In this document: piece by piece, positions 355 to 60,275 of the stretch
Position numbering within the stretch: the first letter of the stretch is position 1
How the letters are laid out: every line of letters begins with the position of its first letter
NCBI GenBank assembly: GCA_964641355.1
Contig: CAZXND010000002.1
Location: 143,112-207,111, forward strand
Direction of reading: 5' to 3'
DNA from: an uncultured Gammaproteobacteria bacterium
GTDB taxonomy: Bacteria; Patescibacteriota; Microgenomatia; Levybacterales; GWA1-39-11
DNA length: 64,000 nucleotides
The notes under the pieces: model-generated
The model's input: the letters and a program-made list of their open reading frames with translations, nothing else
What the model was told of the DNA's origin: nothing
Databases searched by the model: none
Program-made: the position numbers and the translations under genes

Positions 355-1371
355 TTAATTTTTTTTATTACTTTCATTTTTTCCTATGTACCATTTTAAA
401 GTTCTAAGAAGACCCTCATCTAGCTTTATTCTAGGTTCAAAGTTGATCAATCTTTTGGCCTTTTTGTTATCACTATTTCTTCTAGGACTTCCGTCGGCCT
501 TTGTTTTGTCGAATTTTACATTTGGTCTGTGATTCAAAAAACCCGATCTCATTGAAATATCAATAATTTTCGTTACCAAGTCTTTAACTGAAATCTCCTC
601 GTCGGTACCTAAATTTATCCCATCTGGCCTTGAAAGTTTTTCTACTGCGTTGATCATTCCCTCGGCCATATCTTCTACGTATAAAAATGCTCTTGTTTGC
701 TTTCCGCTACCCCAAACGATTAAGGGATCTTCCGAGTCAAAAATTCTCTTTATTAGGGCTGGTATAACATGGGAGGTTTCTGGATTAAAATGATCGCGCG
801 GCCCGTAACAATTATATGGTCTGACAATCGCAACTTTCATACCAAATTCCTCAGCATAAAATTTTCCCAAAAGCTCAGCCATACGCTTTGCCCATCCATA
901 CCCGCTATTGGTAGGCTCTGGCTCATCTAAAAATCCTTCAGTTTCGGGAGTTGGAACGGAGCAATTTCTTGGATAGATACATGCAGATGAAACAATCAAA
1001 AATCTTTCAACTTTTGCTTTTCTTGCTGCCTCAATTACTAGAGTTTCTACAAGAAGGTTATCCCTCATCATAGTTGCTTGATGAATCTTATTATATTCAA
1101 TTCCACCTACTCGAGCTGCGAGATTCATAACAACACTCATACCACTACACGCTTTTTCTATAGTCTTAACATCTAAAGCATCTCCTTTAATAAAAGTGTA
1201 TTTACCTTTTACGCTTGAGAGATTGGAAATCTTTCCATTTTGCAAATTATCGAGTACCGTTACTAAAGCTCCCCTGTCTATCAGCTTTTCCACCACATGG
1301 CTCCCAATAAATCCAGCTCCTCCAGTAACAAGTACTTTTTTATTCTTCCAAAAACTTTTCATACTATGCAA
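355..1371 (-). CDS. fcl: GDP-L-fucose synthase family (GDP-4-keto-6-deoxymannose 3,5-epimerase/4-reductase; Fcl/ColC-type SDR)
   Basis: N-terminal GxxGxxG Rossmann motif (VLVTGGAGFIGSHV). Blocks SSACIYPR, EPTNSGYGWAK (YxxxK), YGPRDHFNPETSHVIPALIKRIF, IVWGSGKQTRAFLYVEDMA and KADGSPRR align closely with remembered E. coli Fcl blocks ([67 protein letters not shown]). Confidence 0.8.
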   Translation of the reverse strand: MHSMKSFWKNKKVLVTGGAGFIGSHVVEKLIDRGALVTVLDNLQNGKISNLSSVKGKYTFIKGDALDVKTIEKACSGMSVVMNLAARVGGIEYNKIHQATMMRDNLLVETLVIEAARKAKVERFLIVSSACIYPRNCSVPTPETEGFLDEPEPTNSGYGWAKRMAELLGKFYAEEFGMKVAIVRPYNCYGPRDHFNPETSHVIPALIKRIFDSEDPLIVWGSGKQTRAFLYVEDMAEGMINAVEKLSRPDGINLGTDEEISVKDLVTKIIDISMRSGFLNHRPNVKFDKTKADGSPRRNSDNKKAKRLINFEPRIKLDEGLLRTLKWYIGKNESNKKN

Positions 1372-2536
1372 AAACTTTTAAAATTTTTTTTATTTCCCCA
1401 TCTGTTAACTCAGGATTATTTCCAAAATATAAACCTTGATCATGAATTAATCTTGCATTTGAATTAAAATCATTATTTTTTTTAACATATTTTCTATAGA
1501 AAGGTTGGGAAGACATGTCACCTCCAACAATTGGCCTTATCTCTATTAGATCTCTACACTTTTCAACCAATTCATCTCTTATTGCTTTACTTCTACAAAC
1601 TACTGGGAAAGCGAAATTAGAAATAAAATCCATATGACTATATTTTATAGGATAATATAAATCAATTCTTTTGTATATATTTTTTGCTAATTTTAAAAAA
1701 TTTTTGTTTCTTTTTTTCAAAATTTCTCCTATATATTTCATCTGTGTATTTCCAATAAATCCATTTATTTCTGTTGTTCTCAAATTGTACCCTAAGTCAT
1801 AGAATGTGTATCTCGAGTAGAAAGTAGAATTTACATTATGAGCCAATCTAATCATTAACTGTCTTTTTTCTGTTAAATTCCTATCCCATCCATGGGCTCT
1901 AACAAGTTGTAACATAGTTTGAAGATCTTCATCGTCTGTGCACACCGCACCTCCTTCAATAGTCGAAAGATGATGACCAACGTAGAATGAAAATGTTGAA
2001 GCCAAACCAAAATTACCTAATTTATTTTTTTTATAAACGCTGCCTAAAGATTCACAATTATCTTCTATTAGAATTATATTTTTCTTGTTACAAATCTTCT
2101 TAATCTCATCTATATCGTCACAAAATCCTAATAGATTCGTGAGAAACAACACTTTTATAGGATTTTTATTAATTACATTTAATAATTTTTTACTTGAAAT
2201 GTTTAGAGTATCCATTTCAACATCAACAGGTATTACTTTTAATCCCAATTGGATAAGAGGCATTATGTTTGTCGACCAAGTAATCGCAGAAAATCCCACA
2301 GTATCTCCTCTTTTGATTCTGTTTAAGTTTAAAAGAGCCTGAATTATCGCAAGATTCGCAGAACTACCACTATTCATCATTACACAAAACTTTCTTTTTT
2401 GCCATTTAGAAAAATTATTTTCGAATTTTTTGCACTCCACACCGATGCTTAATTGTGAGGATTCTAATATAAATTTCGACAACTGTTTCTTTACCAATTT
2501 TTCTTTATAGAAAGTGGACTTAATAAGTTTTATCAT
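1364..2536 (-). CDS. DegT/DnrJ/EryC1/StrS-family PLP/PMP enzyme, ColD-like sugar 3-dehydratase candidate (His replaces the Schiff-base Lys)
   Basis: 390 aa. Fold-type I motifs (MMNSGSSANLAIIQAL; IEDNCESLG). In the FSFYVGHHLSTIEGG block the position normally holding the PLP lysine is His188 (counted in the ORF). This matches the His188 substitution known for GDP-4-keto-6-deoxymannose 3-dehydratase ColD; E1/DdhC has an analogous His. Confidence 0.65.
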   Translation of the reverse strand: MIKLIKSTFYKEKLVKKQLSKFILESSQLSIGVECKKFENNFSKWQKRKFCVMMNSGSSANLAIIQALLNLNRIKRGDTVGFSAITWSTNIMPLIQLGLKVIPVDVEMDTLNISSKKLLNVINKNPIKVLFLTNLLGFCDDIDEIKKICNKKNIILIEDNCESLGSVYKKNKLGNFGLASTFSFYVGHHLSTIEGGAVCTDDEDLQTMLQLVRAHGWDRNLTEKRQLMIRLAHNVNSTFYSRYTFYDLGYNLRTTEINGFIGNTQMKYIGEILKKRNKNFLKLAKNIYKRIDLYYPIKYSHMDFISNFAFPVVCRSKAIRDELVEKCRDLIEIRPIVGGDMSSQPFYRKYVKKNNDFNSNARLIHDQGLYFGNNPELTDGEIKKILKVFA

Positions 2537-2541
2537 GAAAA

Positions 2542-3483
2542 TTATTCACTAGTATATAAGAATTCAGAATACCAATCAATGGTTTTTTTCAGCCCTTCTT
2601 CTAAATTCACTTTTGGACTCCATCCTAATATTTTTTTTGCCTTTATCGAAGATACATATTGCAGCGGAATTTCTCCGCTTCTTCCATTTTTAATTTTTTT
2701 TACCACAAGCTTCTTACCACTAATTGATATTATTTTCTTTACCAATTTTTCCACGCTAATAATATTTCCACTACCAAAATTAAATATTTGGTTCTCATAA
2801 TTCCTCTTAACATTAAGAGATGCTAATAAAATGTATGCATCTATTGCATCATCGATAAAAAGATAATCTCTCATTATCTTACCTCCCCACATTTTTGGGT
2901 GACTATTTTTAAGAACGTGTTTAATTGTCTTTGGAATAAGTCTTTGAAAATTAAGATCACCCCCGCCATATATATTTACAAATCGAGGAATGAGAATTGG
3001 TATGTCAAAACTTTTTGCATAAGATTGAGCAATCAAATCGGTACATGCTTTAGAAGTTTCATAAGGTCTTGTTGGGAAAGGCATGTAGTCTTCCTTATAG
3101 GGAATTCTATTTTTTCCATAAACGTGGGCTGAAGATGCAATTATTATTTTTTCAAGTTTGTTAACTCTACCACTTTCAAGAATATTTAACGTTCCATTGG
3201 TATTAGTTTTAAATGTCTGAAATGGGTAATCCTGACCACTCTCAACAAGTGCTTCTGAGGCAAGATGAAAACAGATATTAATCTTATTTCTTTTAATAAA
3301 ATTATTAACTAACTCAAAGTTTTGTATATCTGCATTTAAAATTTTTTTACCATCACCGCTTGTTCGAGAAATCCCAAAAACTTCAACTCCGAAGGAAGAT
3401 AAACGACTATTTAATGATTTTCCAATAAATCCACTTATCCCCGTAATTAAAATCCTTTTATTTTTTAAATATTTATTATTCAC
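2542..3483 (-). CDS. NAD(P)-dependent sugar epimerase/dehydratase (extended SDR)
   Basis: ILITGISGFIGKSL Rossmann motif and YETSKACTD (YxxxK) catalytic motif. Lacks the Gmd NHESPRRG block, so not called as GDP-mannose 4,6-dehydratase. Confidence 0.7.
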   Translation of the reverse strand: MNNKYLKNKRILITGISGFIGKSLNSRLSSFGVEVFGISRTSGDGKKILNADIQNFELVNNFIKRNKINICFHLASEALVESGQDYPFQTFKTNTNGTLNILESGRVNKLEKIIIASSAHVYGKNRIPYKEDYMPFPTRPYETSKACTDLIAQSYAKSFDIPILIPRFVNIYGGGDLNFQRLIPKTIKHVLKNSHPKMWGGKIMRDYLFIDDAIDAYILLASLNVKRNYENQIFNFGSGNIISVEKLVKKIISISGKKLVVKKIKNGRSGEIPLQYVSSIKAKKILGWSPKVNLEEGLKKTIDWYSEFLYTSE

Positions 3484-4312
3484 TTCTTTTTAGAAATAGT
3501 CCCAATCCACCAGCAATGACTTCTGAAGATCTAAGAATAATAATTCCAACGGTAATATGTGGCCTTCTAACAAATATTTTCCAGTGTTTAAAATATGATT
3601 TTTTGATAGGAAAGAACTGCTTTGTTGCAATTCCCGGGTATCTTTTCAAATATTTTCTGAATGCCTTACTATAATAAAATTTTTTTCTTACACGTAAGAA
3701 AAAGCTTGTTTTTCCTTCATCATGATAAATTATGCTTTTAACTTTACCAATCTTTCCCATCTTAAGCATTTTATAATGGAAATCAGAGTCCTCAACTCCA
3801 ACAATACTCTTATCATATCCTCCGATTTTTAATGCATCCTTCTTTTTAAAAAATCTACAACATTCATTCATACCATTTTCTAATACGTCATTTACATATC
3901 TTTCTAGCGCAACGCACTTTGTCCAATAACCCTTTCCAATAGAAATTTCAGGTATTGTTAATGCAATAACTTTTTCTTTTTTATACACATTAAAACATTC
4001 TCTTATTACATTCTTTGTTAGATACATGTCTTGGTCAATTGTAAGAATAAATTTACCTCTCGCCTCTTCAATTCCTCTATTTCTTTGAATACTTCTCTCT
4101 GGACCATCAACTATATATTTTGCATATTTCTTAATTATTTTTTTACATTTTTCTCTATTAGCACCACTATAATAAGGACTGTCTACCACTATAATCTCAA
4201 GATTTTTGTATGTCTGCTTTTTTAGAGAAGACAAGCATCTACGAATAGTCCTACCTGAATCGTATGTAGGAATTATCACTGAAATTAAGGGAAACTTATT
4301 TTTTTTTAACAT
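3476..4312 (-). CDS. family 2 glycosyltransferase (GT-A)
   Basis: N-terminal ISVIIPTYDSGRTI and downstream DQDM (DxD-like) motif. Confidence 0.7.
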   Translation of the reverse strand: MLKKNKFPLISVIIPTYDSGRTIRRCLSSLKKQTYKNLEIIVVDSPYYSGANREKCKKIIKKYAKYIVDGPERSIQRNRGIEEARGKFILTIDQDMYLTKNVIRECFNVYKKEKVIALTIPEISIGKGYWTKCVALERYVNDVLENGMNECCRFFKKKDALKIGGYDKSIVGVEDSDFHYKMLKMGKIGKVKSIIYHDEGKTSFFLRVRKKFYYSKAFRKYLKRYPGIATKQFFPIKKSYFKHWKIFVRRPHITVGIIILRSSEVIAGGLGLFLKRSE

Positions 4313-5399
4313 TTTCTATCAACTCCAGGCTTTTTTTTGATGCATCTTTCCATGTCAAACTTTTTGCCCATTGGATCCCATTTTTTTGTAATTTTAAATA
4401 CTCTTTTTTATTTTTGAAAACCTTTAAACCGTATTTAGCCATATCAATTGGCGTATTTCTCTTTAAAACAATTCCTGTTTTTTTATCTAATACTGAATCC
4501 TTAAGCCCTGAAGCACCATAAACAATAGAAGGCGTTCCTTGACTTGCAGCCTCTATTACAACAAGCCCCCACCCTTCCCGAATTGAAGCATGAAGTAAAA
4601 GATGTGCTTTCTTCATTAATGCCAACTTTCTCCTCTCAGAGATTTTGCCAAAAAACTTTACCTTAGATTCAATTGAATAGTTACTAATAATTTTTTTTAG
4701 GTAATTAAAATATTTTTCGTCCCCGCTGCCAATAATCCATAAATTTCCCTCCTTAAGCTCTTTTAGTATATAAAAAAAAGATTTAATTACATCTTCGATC
4801 CCTTTCATCCTCACAACCCTACTAACAAATATAAAAGTTGCCACTTTTTCTTTCTTTGGGAGCGATTTTATCGTTTTATTCTGTGCCGGACAATAAATGG
4901 CTGTACAATTTTCTCTTTTAATGCCGAGTTTAATTAAATCCTTAATGGTTGACTCTGCATCTGTCCAAAAAATAGTATTCCTATAAAAAAGAAAGTATAC
5001 TCTTTCACTGATTTTCCCGATTAAATTCAGAGGAAAAGGGTACATATAGTCCCAAATATTACTAGCTACTTCATGAATAAAAGCTATCTTAGGAACTCGG
5101 ACATACAATGGTGTAAAGAATGGTATTCCATGAATCTCATCGATTACCACATCAAATTTTTTTCTGGATAAAAAATAATAAAATGGCGCAAAAAAATAAA
5201 CCAAAAAAGAATTACCCAACCTAACAAAATAGATACCTTTTTTTCTTTCTTTAAACAAAGAACCAGAAAATCTTGATGTAAACCATGTTACATCATGTCC
5301 CTTTTTAATCCAGGCTTTAGCATGCTCTAGAGTTACTATCTCGGCACCCCCAGACTTAGGATTATAAGGATCTCTCCAGTTTAAAATTAGAATATTCAC
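4296..5399 (-). CDS. family 4 glycosyltransferase (GT-B, retaining)
   Basis: C-terminal EGWGLVVIEAASQGTPSIV (E-x7-E motif), 367 aa. Confidence 0.7.
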   Translation of the reverse strand: MNILILNWRDPYNPKSGGAEIVTLEHAKAWIKKGHDVTWFTSRFSGSLFKERKKGIYFVRLGNSFLVYFFAPFYYFLSRKKFDVVIDEIHGIPFFTPLYVRVPKIAFIHEVASNIWDYMYPFPLNLIGKISERVYFLFYRNTIFWTDAESTIKDLIKLGIKRENCTAIYCPAQNKTIKSLPKKEKVATFIFVSRVVRMKGIEDVIKSFFYILKELKEGNLWIIGSGDEKYFNYLKKIISNYSIESKVKFFGKISERRKLALMKKAHLLLHASIREGWGLVVIEAASQGTPSIVYGASGLKDSVLDKKTGIVLKRNTPIDMAKYGLKVFKNKKEYLKLQKNGIQWAKSLTWKDASKKSLELIENVKKK

Positions 5400-6151
5400 T
5401 TTTTCTTTCTTTTTTTATCGTAATATCTTAAAAACTTTAATCTATAAAAAACGGCAGCTGTATCCCAAAGCATCCAAAAAACAATATTCCAAAAATTTTT
5501 GGAATTTATAGTATTCTCGCCTTTAAAATTTAATTTAACGGGAGCTTCAAAAATTCTTACATACCCAAGTTTATGCGCAACTGCCAAGACTTCGATATCG
5601 AATGCAAATCTCTTGACAACTATTTTTGAAAAAACTTTTTTGGCTACTTTATTTTTAAATATTTTAAGTCCAACTTGGGTGTCTTTAACTTTAAATCCAA
5701 AAAGAACATGTGTTAACTTCCGATAACCCCAAGATAAAATCTTTCTAATCAAAGGATAGGTGACTTTTGACTCAGGGTGCAGTTTACTACCGATTACAAT
5801 ATCAGCATCATTCCAATTCATGATATCAATCATTATAGATATTTCCGTAGGATCCAAATCCATTCCCGCGTCAATAAAGCCGATAATATCTCCTTTCGCC
5901 CTTATAATTCCCTGCCTAATAGCAAATCCCTTTCCTTTATTTTTTTTATATCCAAAAACTTTTATCGACTTGTCTTTTAAGGGTTTTATTTTTTCATAAG
6001 TTTTATCAAAAAATCCATCCACAACGACTAATATCTCGTATCTTTTGAACATTGATGATAAAATCTTATTCAAACTTCTTATATCTTTAACAATAGTCTT
6101 TTCTTGTTTATATGCGGGGACGATTAAAGAAAAAAAACTGGCTTTTTCCAT
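5396..6151 (-). CDS. GT2, DPM1/GtrB-like polyprenyl-phosphate sugar synthase candidate
   Basis: SLIVPAYKQEKTI...VVVDGFFDKT...KNKGKGFAIRQGI...FIDAGMDLDP...GSKL; FKxF and FDIE blocks typical of Dpm1-like enzymes. Confidence 0.6.
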   Translation of the reverse strand: MEKASFFSLIVPAYKQEKTIVKDIRSLNKILSSMFKRYEILVVVDGFFDKTYEKIKPLKDKSIKVFGYKKNKGKGFAIRQGIIRAKGDIIGFIDAGMDLDPTEISIMIDIMNWNDADIVIGSKLHPESKVTYPLIRKILSWGYRKLTHVLFGFKVKDTQVGLKIFKNKVAKKVFSKIVVKRFAFDIEVLAVAHKLGYVRIFEAPVKLNFKGENTINSKNFWNIVFWMLWDTAAVFYRLKFLRYYDKKRKKK

Positions 6152-6215
6152 TACATTGCGAGATTATTATTTGAAGATAATAACAAACAAGAAGACCTGA
6201 TGCAATAATTTATAA

Positions 6216-7535
6216 TTAATTCCTCGGATTGTTTACAACCCCTATTGCATTTTTTAACTTTTCAAAATTTAAGAACTCCTTTACATAAAAAATTAATAGT
6301 AAAAATAGGACACAAAGAGAGGAGAAAATTGATACCCCAATAACTTGGTAGAATGAATCGTGCAAATAAAAAATTAATACACATTGGGCTACGGCTCCAA
6401 ATGCCGTTATTAAAAATACAATCGTTTTTTTAAGTGAAAGAAAAAAATTTACAAAAACATTAAGCAGGCTAAACACACCAATAAATAATCCATATAGTCC
6501 TAGGTATGGAGCAACACTTACATACTCCTCCCCTCCTAAAAAGAAATTAATACTAAATAAAGGAAAAATACTAAAAAAAACAATAATGCAAAAAGATGGA
6601 AATGACACCAAAAGCATCGCTAAATAAAAAAGTCTATTAAAATTTTGTCCTAAATTATGTCTTTTTATTAACAAGGGAAACATTACAGAAGTAATAGGAC
6701 CGGTGAGATAAAAAATTGTTTTGCCTACTAAAGATAATCCTCCATATAACCCCGCTTCATATGAATTAAAAAAATGCTTAACCAAAACAACATCAGTAGA
6801 AACAAGAGAATTTAAAGCCAAAATAGAAATTGACGTTGGAAGCGCGTATCTTAAAACATCCCTCATTGGAAACCTAACATTCATTTTTCCTTTATGAGTA
6901 ATTAAAAATCTTAAAGGAAAGAAAGTAAACACAAAAGGAATTAATATTGATAGGAAGATCGCCCACAAAGCCCCAAAGACTTTTAACCCCAAAGTCACGA
7001 GTATTATTCCAAAAAGAACTTTAATTAAACCTCCTAGAGCAGAAGATAGGGATATAAATCTAAATCTTGTCAGACTTTGAAGGAAAGCAAAGTTTACGAT
7101 ACTAATATATCCAAAACTCACAATAAAACCAGTTATTAATATGTACCATTGATTCTCAAGATGTAAAAAGAGTTTCAAAAAAGGAGAAAAGATAACAAAA
7201 AATGTAAATAAAATGGCAAAGATTATTATAGAAAGTAACAAAACTTTTAAATAAAAAGCTTTGGCTTCGCTTAGCTTTTCTTGAGCAAAATAATCCGTAG
7301 CAAACCTCACTATAATGGTCGTTAAAGATTGAGAAGGAATTCCTAATAACACAAAAAGCGATAACAACGAAGCATATATTCCATACTCATGAGCGGAAAA
7401 ATTTCTAACAAGAAATAAATTCAAAAGAAAAGACAAAAAACTTGATGCAAAGAATCCAACAAAAATATAAGCACTTCCACTAATTAACTCGTTGTTCAAG
7501 ATCAGTCTTCCATAACTAATAATTTTATGCTTCAT
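6216..7535 (-). CDS. MOP-superfamily polysaccharide/oligosaccharide flippase (Wzx-like)
   Basis: 439-aa highly hydrophobic polytopic protein (about 12 predicted TM helices), located in a glycan gene cluster. Confidence 0.55.
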   Translation of the reverse strand: MKHKIISYGRLILNNELISGSAYIFVGFFASSFLSFLLNLFLVRNFSAHEYGIYASLLSLFVLLGIPSQSLTTIIVRFATDYFAQEKLSEAKAFYLKVLLLSIIIFAILFTFFVIFSPFLKLFLHLENQWYILITGFIVSFGYISIVNFAFLQSLTRFRFISLSSALGGLIKVLFGIILVTLGLKVFGALWAIFLSILIPFVFTFFPLRFLITHKGKMNVRFPMRDVLRYALPTSISILALNSLVSTDVVLVKHFFNSYEAGLYGGLSLVGKTIFYLTGPITSVMFPLLIKRHNLGQNFNRLFYLAMLLVSFPSFCIIVFFSIFPLFSINFFLGGEEYVSVAPYLGLYGLFIGVFSLLNVFVNFFLSLKKTIVFLITAFGAVAQCVLIFYLHDSFYQVIGVSIFSSLCVLFLLLIFYVKEFLNFEKLKNAIGVVNNPRN

Positions 7536-8583
7536 ATAATGATCTATAAATACTCATCATTTTATCAGCAGTACTAGCCCAAGAAAATTTCTTAGACACC
7601 CTAAATCCCTTTTCAATCAAAGAATTTCTTACATCGTTATTTTTTTCAAGTACTTGAATTGCTTTTTTTAAATCACCAACATCAATCGGATTAACATAGA
7701 ATGCCGCGTTTTGTGTAATTTCAGGAAGAGAACCTTCTTTAGAAGTAATCACGGGGCATCCAGATTGCATAGCCTCAAGAACCGGTAATCCAAAACCTTC
7801 ATAGAATGAAGGCATAATCAAAGCAGTCGCTAAATTGTAGATCAACGATAAATCCTCGTTTGACAAAAAACCTGTGAGGAAACAATTTTTACTAGTAGCC
7901 AGAGCGTCTTTAATTAATACCCTATCTCTATTCCATTTATTGCCTTTATCAAAATCGTTATCAACCAATGACTTTCCAACAAATACACAGTTAACGCCAG
8001 ATAATTTTACAGCCTCTGTGATATTTATTAAATTTTTATTCCAAGTAACATCACCTACATAAACAAAAAACTTTCTAGGAAGATTGTGCCTTTTAATAAA
8101 ATCAAATTTTACTTTGTCGGATATAATCTCTCTTTTAAATATTTTATCAGCTGCCAAATATACAACAGAAACTTTCTCCGGATTTACCCCTATTAAATTA
8201 ACAATGTCCTTTTTAGAACTATCCGAATCAGTTATTATCTTATCCATTTTTAACAATAAATTTTTTTGGAAAAACCATTTAGTTGATCCTGCCAACCCTG
8301 ATGGGAAATGGTCGGGATAAAGAATTGGAATTAGATCATGTACGGTTACAACAGTTTTAGCCTTTTTTTTCAAAGGTAAACTTAAAAAAAACGGCTCAAA
8401 AAATGGAATATGTATAGCATCAGGCTTAATTGTTAATTTACCTCCTTTAAATTCATAAAAGTGATCCTCAGGAAAATTCTCAAGTAAAGAATTAAACAAG
8501 TGACTATAGTAAAAACCACTCCCCCTCACCCCATGTTGGTCAAAACGTTTTTTACTTCTAGATGTATCAAAAACTATTTTCAT
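7525..8583 (-). CDS. family 4 glycosyltransferase (GT-B)
   Basis: EGFGLPVLEAMQSGCPVITS E-x7-E motif near the C-terminus. Confidence 0.7.
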   Translation of the reverse strand: MKIVFDTSRSKKRFDQHGVRGSGFYYSHLFNSLLENFPEDHFYEFKGGKLTIKPDAIHIPFFEPFFLSLPLKKKAKTVVTVHDLIPILYPDHFPSGLAGSTKWFFQKNLLLKMDKIITDSDSSKKDIVNLIGVNPEKVSVVYLAADKIFKREIISDKVKFDFIKRHNLPRKFFVYVGDVTWNKNLINITEAVKLSGVNCVFVGKSLVDNDFDKGNKWNRDRVLIKDALATSKNCFLTGFLSNEDLSLIYNLATALIMPSFYEGFGLPVLEAMQSGCPVITSKEGSLPEITQNAAFYVNPIDVGDLKKAIQVLEKNNDVRNSLIEKGFRVSKKFSWASTADKMMSIYRSLYEA

Positions 8584-60201: not shown

Positions 60202-60275
60202 GCCCTCGTCGTCTAGTGGCCTAGGATATCTGGTTCTCATCCAGAAGATCACCGGTTCAAATCCGGTCGGGGGCA
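60202..60275 (+). tRNA. tRNA-Glu (anticodon CUC)
   Basis: Manual cloverleaf: acceptor GCCCTCG/CGGGGGC (one G-U pair), 3-bp D stem GTC/GAT as in tRNA-Glu, anticodon stem TCTGG/CCAGA with loop TTCTCAT (U33, CUC, A37), variable AGATC, T arm ACCGG-TTCAAAT-CCGGT, discriminator A. No encoded CCA. Confidence 0.8.

Follow-up and report, generated by a model that had tools for sequence, protein, structure and literature searches.

3,6-Dideoxy sugars have been described chiefly as antigenic determinants in the O-antigens of Gram-negative bacteria and in Campylobacter capsules. We analyzed a 64,000-nucleotide stretch of contig CAZXND010000002.1 (GenBank assembly GCA_964641355.1; hereafter, the window) from an uncultured bacterium with a small genome that resembles the candidate phyla radiation (CPR), in which a DegT-family gene at 1364-2536 and its neighbor at 355-1362 are predicted to encode a 3-dehydratase and a short-chain dehydrogenase/reductase (SDR) that together complete a sugar of this type. 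The mechanism of ColD-type 3-dehydratases was taken from review articles and original studies of ColD and of the Campylobacter jejuni enzyme (PMC8987622, PMC10440746). In C. jejuni HS:5, GDP-3,6-dideoxy-L-ribo-heptose is made by a 4,6-dehydratase, a ColD-like C3-dehydratase, an RmlC-like C5-epimerase, and a C4-reductase (PMC10440746). The C. jejuni C3-dehydratases share 62-67% identity with ColD but work on heptoses (PMC10440746), and changes at C6 are tolerated by the C. jejuni enzyme (PMC10680097). A literature search covering a limited set of papers brought up none that connects colitose with Patescibacteria.

The window begins with a close-packed array of genes on the minus strand, read in the order of an SDR (SDR313), the 390-residue DegT-family protein, a second SDR of 335 or 338 residues (SDR335), and a small cupin. 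The DegT-family protein matched Pfam DegT_DnrJ_EryC1 (PF01041) with 203.7 bits over residues 21-387. When it was compared with the PDB using phmmer, the best solved relatives were four ColD entries (2gms, E 1.3e-62), followed by Yersinia E1 (3bcx, 4e-38) and by true aminotransferases at 1e-25 or weaker. Identity was 36.7% to ColD and 28.6% to E1. The first His of the motif FSFYVGHHLSTIEGG (residue 182 onward) is residue 188; it occupies the position of the Schiff-base Lys of aminotransferases and aligns with the ColD position that is mutated in the H188N (3b8x) and H188K (2r0t) entries. Gly187 aligns with Ser187 of ColD, which is Asn in the S187N/H188K entry 3gr9. Gly187, His188, and His189 were invariant in 31 aligned relatives, and EDNCES and about 75 further positions were conserved among relatives. 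SGSSANL, TWST, and EDNCES align with the matching ColD motifs, and SGSxANL, (S/T)WST, EDNCES, RAHGW.RNL, GYN.R, and E.RPIV are common to both proteins, as are the chain length of 390 residues, two consecutive His of which the first is at the Schiff-base position, and the absence of an Fe-S motif. An earlier note on this DNA, made from the letters alone, had placed a His at exactly the Lys position, and the alignment confirmed it.

We then compared the protein with E1 (RfbH/DdhC/AscC; 3bcx, 3bb8), which it resembles in its DegT fold, in having His for Lys, and, by prediction, in deoxygenating C3 of a 4-keto-6-deoxy sugar nucleotide. It differs from E1 in the weaker match and in the absence of the [2Fe-2S] cysteines, and no E3-type partner would be required here. 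The E1 cysteine cluster DCYCAPGCDNTC aligns to the Cys-free stretch RNLTE..KRQL, and the one Cys present, that of EDNCES, also occurs in ColD. An identity as E1/RfbH was rejected on the missing cysteines and on the RfbH model NF011936 (206 bits against a cut-off of 423), and the E1-type Fe-S, E3-dependent mechanism was ruled out by the missing Cys cluster. The absence of the [2Fe-2S] Cys motif therefore points to a hydrolytic, E3-independent mechanism, and the choice between ColD and E1 that the earlier note had left to alignment fell to ColD. By every sequence feature tested, the protein is a ColD-type enzyme, predicted to be hydrolytic, glutamate-recycled, and E3-independent, and it very probably functions as a 3-dehydratase. 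No ColD-specific match for it was found in the NCBIfam library; because of this, and because the RfbH model stays below its cut-off, database names for the family are generically "DegT aminotransferase".

According to this mechanism, pyridoxamine 5'-phosphate (PMP) would react with C4 of a nucleotide-linked 4-keto-6-deoxy sugar to give a ketimine, after which His188 would abstract the C4' proton of PMP and the 3-OH would leave. The enamine would then be hydrolyzed to a 4-keto-3,6-dideoxy sugar and ammonia, and PMP would be regenerated from pyridoxal 5'-phosphate (PLP) by L-glutamate, with neither an Fe-S cluster nor an E3 reductase.

The gene that follows the dehydratase encodes SDR335, whose ATG lies 1 nt beyond the dehydratase stop codon (TAG); in this start/stop arrangement, the two genes are translationally coupled. 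Its best PDB matches were GDP-L-fucose synthases (GFS; 7ll6, 1e-44; E. coli GFS, 4.5e-40). GDP-mannose 3,5-epimerase (GME) scored near GFS (3e-37), and a GalE-like enzyme was also close. Like GFS and ColC, SDR335 is an extended SDR with a Ser-x-Cys (VSSACIYP), Tyr-x3-Lys (YGWAKR), and His (SHVIPAL) set, which was conserved in 13 SDR335 orthologues aligned with a near-cutoff Fcl protein. These residues are the equivalents of Ser107, Cys109, Tyr136, Lys140, and His179 of E. coli GFS. SDR335 differs from GFS and ColC in its N-terminus, which is of the long GalE/UXS/GME form (GGAGFIGSH...VLDNL with an insertion of about 17 residues), whereas the GFS form is short and of NADPH type; the long form suggests NAD(H) rather than NADPH as the cofactor. 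The NCBIfam Fcl model NF047922 gave 196.8 bits against a cut-off of 500. Because this score is far below the cut-off, SDR335 was regarded as GFS-like and not as a clear Fcl, and its assignment as an Fcl/ColC equivalog was rejected on the score and on the lack of the short N-terminus. The earlier note had called this gene a clear GDP-L-fucose-synthase homolog; the best structural matches and the catalytic set agree with that description, but the word "clear" does not survive the model score.

On these features, SDR335 is a putative ColC-like C5-epimerase/C4-reductase of its own subfamily, acting on the product of the 3-dehydratase. Like GDP-fucose synthase, it would epimerize C5 with Cys and His as the acid-base pair; it would also reduce C4 through Tyr/Lys and NAD(P)H, yielding a nucleotide-activated 3,6-dideoxy-L-sugar. 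We put the probability at roughly 85-90% that the two enzymes together produce a nucleotide-linked 4-keto-3,6-dideoxy intermediate and convert it into a 3,6-dideoxy sugar. Another Fcl-like SDR (207 bits) was observed at 18417-19382 of L018 (L numbers are our labels for loci and assemblies). It carries Lys (SKALAGL) at the position of GFS His179 and keeps the Cys, and the Ser two residues earlier is lost (VAGCSYPG); a Cys together with a Lys forms the acid-base combination of GDP-mannose 3,5-epimerase.

The gene directly upstream of the dehydratase, SDR313, ends 5 nt before the dehydratase start. Its best NCBIfam match was CDP-glucose 4,6-dehydratase (151 bits, cut-off 278), and it was 37% identical to an RfbG-like protein, SDR319, which has SSDKAYG. 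SDR313 has SSAHVYG where the catalytic Ser-Asp-Lys (S-D-K) is expected, with S-S-H in its relatives. With Ala-His in place of the catalytic Asp-Lys pair, SDR313 could not be confirmed as a 4,6-dehydratase; a non-canonical dehydratase is one possibility, and a neofunctionalized epimerase or reductase another. An SDR of this type lies directly upstream of the ColD-like gene in L029, L030, L040, L042, and L043. The gene was rejected as a Gmd on the same motif and on 46 bits with the gmd model, which agrees with the earlier note, where no Gmd had been seen at this position.

The positions of the genes discussed are given in Table 1. The genes at 3476-8583 overlap or are separated by gaps of at most 64 nt, lie on one strand, and are continuous with the dehydratase array; their Pfam families were read from the genes called on L001/L003, and their order was also found in L007 and L016. 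The glycosyltransferases (GT) and the flippase encoded there are likely the users and the exporter of the sugar, which would be incorporated into a cell-surface glycan.

Table 1. Positions of the genes around the ColD-type dehydratase, in the window and beyond its start (aa, amino acids; NDP, nucleoside diphosphate).
Feature	Position	Strand	Remarks
Small cupin	1-377, runs off window start	(-)	ATG at 377; 127 aa in full, 125 aa inside the window
SDR335, GFS/ColC-like extended SDR	355-1362	(-)	335 aa (ATG at 1362); 355-1371 gives 338 aa with a TTG start
ColD-type PMP/PLP-dependent NDP-4-keto-6-deoxy-sugar 3-dehydratase (predicted)	1364-2536	(-)	390 aa; Gly187-His188-His189; no Fe-S Cys motif
SDR313, extended SDR, RfbG (CDP-glucose 4,6-dehydratase) lineage	2542-3483	(-)	NCBIfam, motif comparison
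GT2	3476-4312	(-)	Pfam
GT4	4296-5399	(-)	Pfam
GT2	5396-6151	(-)	Pfam
Wzx-like flippase	6216-7535	(-)	Pfam
GT4	7525-8583	(-)	Pfam
SDR329 (Gmd family) and heptose module	L003 17825-20994 and L018 10981-13134; 6.5-12 kb beyond window start	same strand as ColD-like gene	Pfam/NCBIfam
Second His-type dehydratase homologue, E1/RfbH-like	L018 13121-14329; about 12.8 kb beyond window start	(-), strand opposite to heptose module	402 aa; 3bcx 4e-68; RfbH 344 bits, cut-off 423

The contig was continued beyond the window start in three extensions using the public assemblies L001, L003, L018, and L103, so that about 95 kb of the 207.8-kb contig was covered. Marker proteins from relatives were searched by tblastn in the 64-kb window and in about 20 kb beyond its start (L018), and a further 10 kb or so was covered by the Pfam families of the called genes. 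In the 95 kb thus covered, no true gmd, manC, or manB and no RfbF, RfbG, or TyvE-like gene was found. Past the cupin, on the same strand, are genes for a TylC3-type C-methyltransferase (PF08421 and PF08484), a UXS-like SDR, a GFO/IDH/MocA oxidoreductase, and three GTs. They are followed, again on this strand, by SDR329, a nucleotidyltransferase (HddC-like) fused to a GmhB-type phosphatase, an HddA-like GHMP kinase, a GmhA-like SIS isomerase, an RmlC-type epimerase, and another SDR (a reductase). The distance from the window start is about 6.5 kb to the start of SDR329 and 7.5-10.3 kb to the heptose synthesis genes. The HddC-GmhB fusion (157 bits on GmhB, 94 bits on HddC) was the only nucleotidyltransferase detected in the region covered. 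The kinase scored 151 bits on NF049969, the isomerase 101 bits on TIGR00441, and the RmlC-type epimerase 185 bits, which is above its own cut-off. Members of the HddA-like kinase family were seen to be widespread in Levybacteria and Parcubacteria, at 65-75% identity.

SDR329 matched the reductase Rmd (2pk3) with 1e-58, the C. jejuni GDP-heptose 4,6-dehydratase (7us5) with 4e-48, and the gmd model with 156 bits against a cut-off of 415. Its loop reads NHEGPRRD, compared with NHESPRRG in GMDs, THSGPRRSD in 7us5, and GPGQ in Rmd-type reductases; the PRR loop and the short-form architecture match those of the C. jejuni GDP-heptose 4,6-dehydratase. The suggestion in the earlier note that a Gmd might lie beyond the window start, next to the cupin, was borne out in that a Gmd-family gene exists there, but it is about 6.5 kb away and heads the heptose operon, and the search for gmd and manC that the note had proposed gave neither a true gmd nor a manC in the 95 kb covered. 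In the 402-residue E1-like protein farther on, the Lys position is taken by His (FFGSHIIT), and none of the four E1 Fe-S cysteines is retained (GWGRSSSLFGETEDIKKRF). Its gene is convergent with an RmlC-like gene and with an SDR gene designated SDR313b, and the pair of E1-like gene and SDR313b recurs in L047 and L060.

To place the dehydratase among its relatives, 8,000 candidates were scored, of which 7,916 had E <= 1e-30. The best 120 relatives listed were 70-77% identical to it, and the few of the listed ones with a named source came from Candidatus Levybacteria, Microgenomates, and Parcubacteria. Eighty metagenome loci from an alignment-based scan and several genome or assembly loci were annotated by tblastn with marker proteins and arranged by neighbor joining (a simple distance tree); an earlier single-protein contig scan had given five loci. 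Synteny was counted in metagenome fragments of unequal length and relatedness, and 51 loci had adequate flanks. Of these 51 loci, 33 contained an Fcl-like SDR, which in 22 was no more than 300 bp from the ColD-like gene. Relatives at 52-67% identity typically occur in Gmd - ColD-like - Fcl operons, and a Saccharibacteria genome carries true Gmd (582 bits), Fcl (488 bits), and ColD-like genes in a row. Among loci at 45-60% identity, 7 of 17 had a Gmd-family gene no more than 300 bp away; at 60-68%, 3 of 16 did. In the clade of the window's gene (at least 68% identity; 18 loci), an adjacent Gmd occurred in none, an adjacent SDR335-type partner in 8, and an RfbF-like gene in 6.

The RfbF-like genes of the closest loci are full length (TIGR02623, about 272 bits), and RfbG-like genes with the S-D-K motif (223 bits) are present in L021, L022, and L030. 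CDP-tyvelose 2-epimerases are the only strong PDB matches of an SDR that directly follows the pair in L029 and L030 and the dehydratase in L007 and L023. RfbF/RfbG/TyvE-like neighbors are thus a feature that several of the closest relatives share with E1 systems. In several relatives, RfbF sits in a separate operon with UGDH, a UXS-like SDR, and a C-methyltransferase. Viewed on their own, L007, L023, L029, L030, and L021 (71-76% identity) combine Fe-S-free ColD-type dehydratases with a CDP-tyvelose-2-epimerase-like SDR near RfbF/RfbG-like genes, a context that may represent an E3-independent CDP-3,6-dideoxyhexose pathway in CPR bacteria. The nucleotide pocket of ColD-type enzymes lies at the dimer interface. 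Only two positions differ consistently between the Gmd-linked relatives and the closest clade, which is a weak argument against a remodeled nucleotide pocket; two positions were also too few to argue for a specificity switch, and this idea was dropped.

In the window's organism, the nucleotide is probably GDP, as judged from the ancestry of the family, from the resemblance of the partner SDR to GFS, and from the Gmd-family and heptose genes nearby. The most likely precursor would be GDP-6-deoxy-4-keto-D-lyxo-heptose, supplied by the HddC-GmhB/HddA/GmhA module and SDR329, and the pathway would then end in a GDP-3,6-dideoxyheptose, as it does in C. jejuni HS:5. The heptose skeleton is favored because of the local gene content: as in C. 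jejuni HS:5/HS:11, a GDP-heptose module, a Gmd-family putative 4,6-dehydratase, a ColD-type enzyme, an RmlC-like epimerase, and SDR reductase types are all present, here within about 12 kb. We propose GDP-3,6-dideoxyheptose tentatively, at less than even odds, since a number of observations weigh against it or against parts of the route. The C. jejuni enzymes are much closer to ColD than the window's enzyme is (62-67% against 37%). Heptose genes were found within 10 kb of the dehydratase in none of the 51 related loci with adequate flanks, so a link between the dehydratase/SDR335 pair and heptose synthesis is not general; both gene types occur, farther apart, on two other contigs. The closest relatives (at least 68% identity) are often near CDP-type genes of the RfbF/RfbG/TyvE-like kinds. 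Every heptose-gene match is below the curated NCBIfam cut-off, and SDR329 scores better against the reductase Rmd than against the heptose dehydratase. The module also brings its own RmlC-like epimerase and reductase and has the E1-like His-type dehydratase nearby, and these could be its real consumers. The N-terminus of SDR335 is of the long NAD type, unlike that of GFS or ColC. Finally, as about 95 kb of the 207.8 kb was covered, gmd/manC or rfbF/G may lie elsewhere.

The earlier note had proposed a colitose-like GDP-3,6-dideoxyhexose. Its enzyme classes are right, and GDP chemistry is backed by the Gmd-ColD-Fcl synteny at 52-67% identity, but colitose is now one of three options. For such a product, ColD- and ColC-type enzymes would act on GDP-4-keto-6-deoxy-D-mannose to give GDP-L-colitose or another GDP-3,6-dideoxyhexose, with GDP-mannose and the 4,6-dehydratase step coming from genes elsewhere or with SDR329 acting on GDP-mannose. 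This is the ancestral and commonest context of the family, as the Saccharibacteria genome and the Gmd-linked loci illustrate; few positions part those relatives from the closest clade, and SDR335 keeps the Cys/His pair of GFS. The region covered, however, lacks true gmd, manC, and manB, its sole Gmd-family gene sits inside a heptose operon, adjacent Gmd disappears among the 18 closest loci, and SDR335 is no Fcl/ColC equivalog, all of which make a GDP-hexose unlikely in our view. An equally unlikely course is that the closest clade was recruited to CDP-4-keto-6-deoxy-D-glucose, doing the job of E1 without Fe-S or E3. SDR335 would then serve as a 4-reductase, and the product would be a paratose-, tyvelose-, or ascarylose-type CDP-3,6-dideoxyhexose; SDR313 might supply the 4-keto sugar. 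The RfbF-like, S-D-K RfbG-like, and CDP-tyvelose 2-epimerase-like genes of the closest loci fit this course, as does the RfbG lineage of SDR313 directly upstream here. Against it, no such RfbF, RfbG, or TyvE-like genes were found in the region covered, the ColD and GFS families are otherwise GDP-specific, and only the two clade-specific positions separate the clade from Gmd-linked relatives. In addition, the RfbF of several relatives belongs to the other operon described above, and SDR313 lacks the catalytic Asp-Lys pair. Taking the two substrates other than GDP-4-keto-6-deoxymannose together, we see just under an even chance that the CPR clade of Fe-S-free ColD-type enzymes with a long-form GFS-like SDR uses GDP-6-deoxy-4-keto-heptose or CDP-4-keto-6-deoxyglucose.

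We also considered that the DegT-family protein is not a 3-dehydratase in vivo at all, being instead a transaminase-like or divergent DegT enzyme or an inactive paralogue, and that the SDR is an unrelated, NAD-dependent epimerase of GME type. The SDR335 N-terminus, the GME match near GFS, and SSACIYP, a motif that also occurs in GME, would fit such an SDR. His enzymes of the SpnQ type, moreover, transaminate under some conditions (PMC8987622). On the other side stand the invariance of His188, His189, EDNCES, and the other ColD motifs among the aligned relatives, the strong conservation of the family (70-77% identity over many CPR genomes), and the persistent pairing with Fcl-like SDRs and, in remoter relatives, with Gmd. 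Changing ColD into an aminotransferase needs both Asn187 and Lys188 (3gr9), whereas the window's enzyme has Gly187 and His188, and we judge this alternative very improbable. That the S187N/H188K double change makes an aminotransferase of ColD is reportedly a finding of the Holden laboratory.

The 3' end of SDR335 overlaps the small cupin gene by 23 nt. As the earlier note had seen, this gene is cut by the window start; it is complete on an overlapping contig copy (L003 10986-11369). The cupin matched Pfam Cupin_2 with 31 bits, and its best PDB matches were oxalate decarboxylase cupins at about 1e-5. Profile scans gave no FdtA or RmlC match and no NCBIfam match, and an FdtA/QdtA-like ketoisomerase or RmlC-like epimerase was rejected as an identity, the matches being generic Cupin_2 ones; it is possibly a sugar epimerase or isomerase. 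A trio of the cupin, the TylC3-type sugar C-methyltransferase (PF08421/PF08484), and the UXS-like SDR occupies L003 10986-13679 and is kept in L015 5810-8505, which hints at a branched-chain (C-methyl) sugar from the same cluster. In other relatives (L016, L017, L026, and L038), the C-methyltransferase accompanies RfbF-like, UGDH, and UXS-like genes.

Genes for glycosyltransferases and membrane proteins account for nearly all of the window. Glycosylation machinery occupies the minus strand nearly throughout 8624-56961, almost all of it on that one strand. It includes three large paralogue families, with five copies of a PTPS_related/GT-C-like protein of about 550 residues, seven copies of another protein of about 550 residues, and four copies of a protein of 740-800 residues, as well as many GT2, GT4, and GT87 genes and one methyltransferase. 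At the gathering threshold, Rfam gave a single match in the window, a tRNA gene at 60202-60275 on the plus strand, opposite to almost all protein genes.

Compared with ColD, the system described here thus belongs to a CPR-like host of low GC content (about 30% in the window) that is not a Gram-negative O-antigen producer, has no adjacent gmd or manC, and employs a partner SDR of a distinct long-form subfamily. The pathway would be of a known kind, and its sugar product is possibly a seven-carbon heptose instead of colitose. The mostly generic "DegT aminotransferase" annotation of the family is corrected by these results. A heptose or CDP-sugar substrate would extend what ColD-type enzymes are known to do and would offer Fe-S-free enzymes for making rare deoxy sugars. 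A heptose would make this the first 3,6-dideoxyheptose pathway outside Campylobacter, in an organism without lipopolysaccharide, and a CDP-sugar would mean an E3-independent route to sugars of the paratose, tyvelose, or ascarylose type. The distribution of the family suggests that many ultra-small, host-dependent CPR bacteria carry 3,6-dideoxy sugars on their surface.

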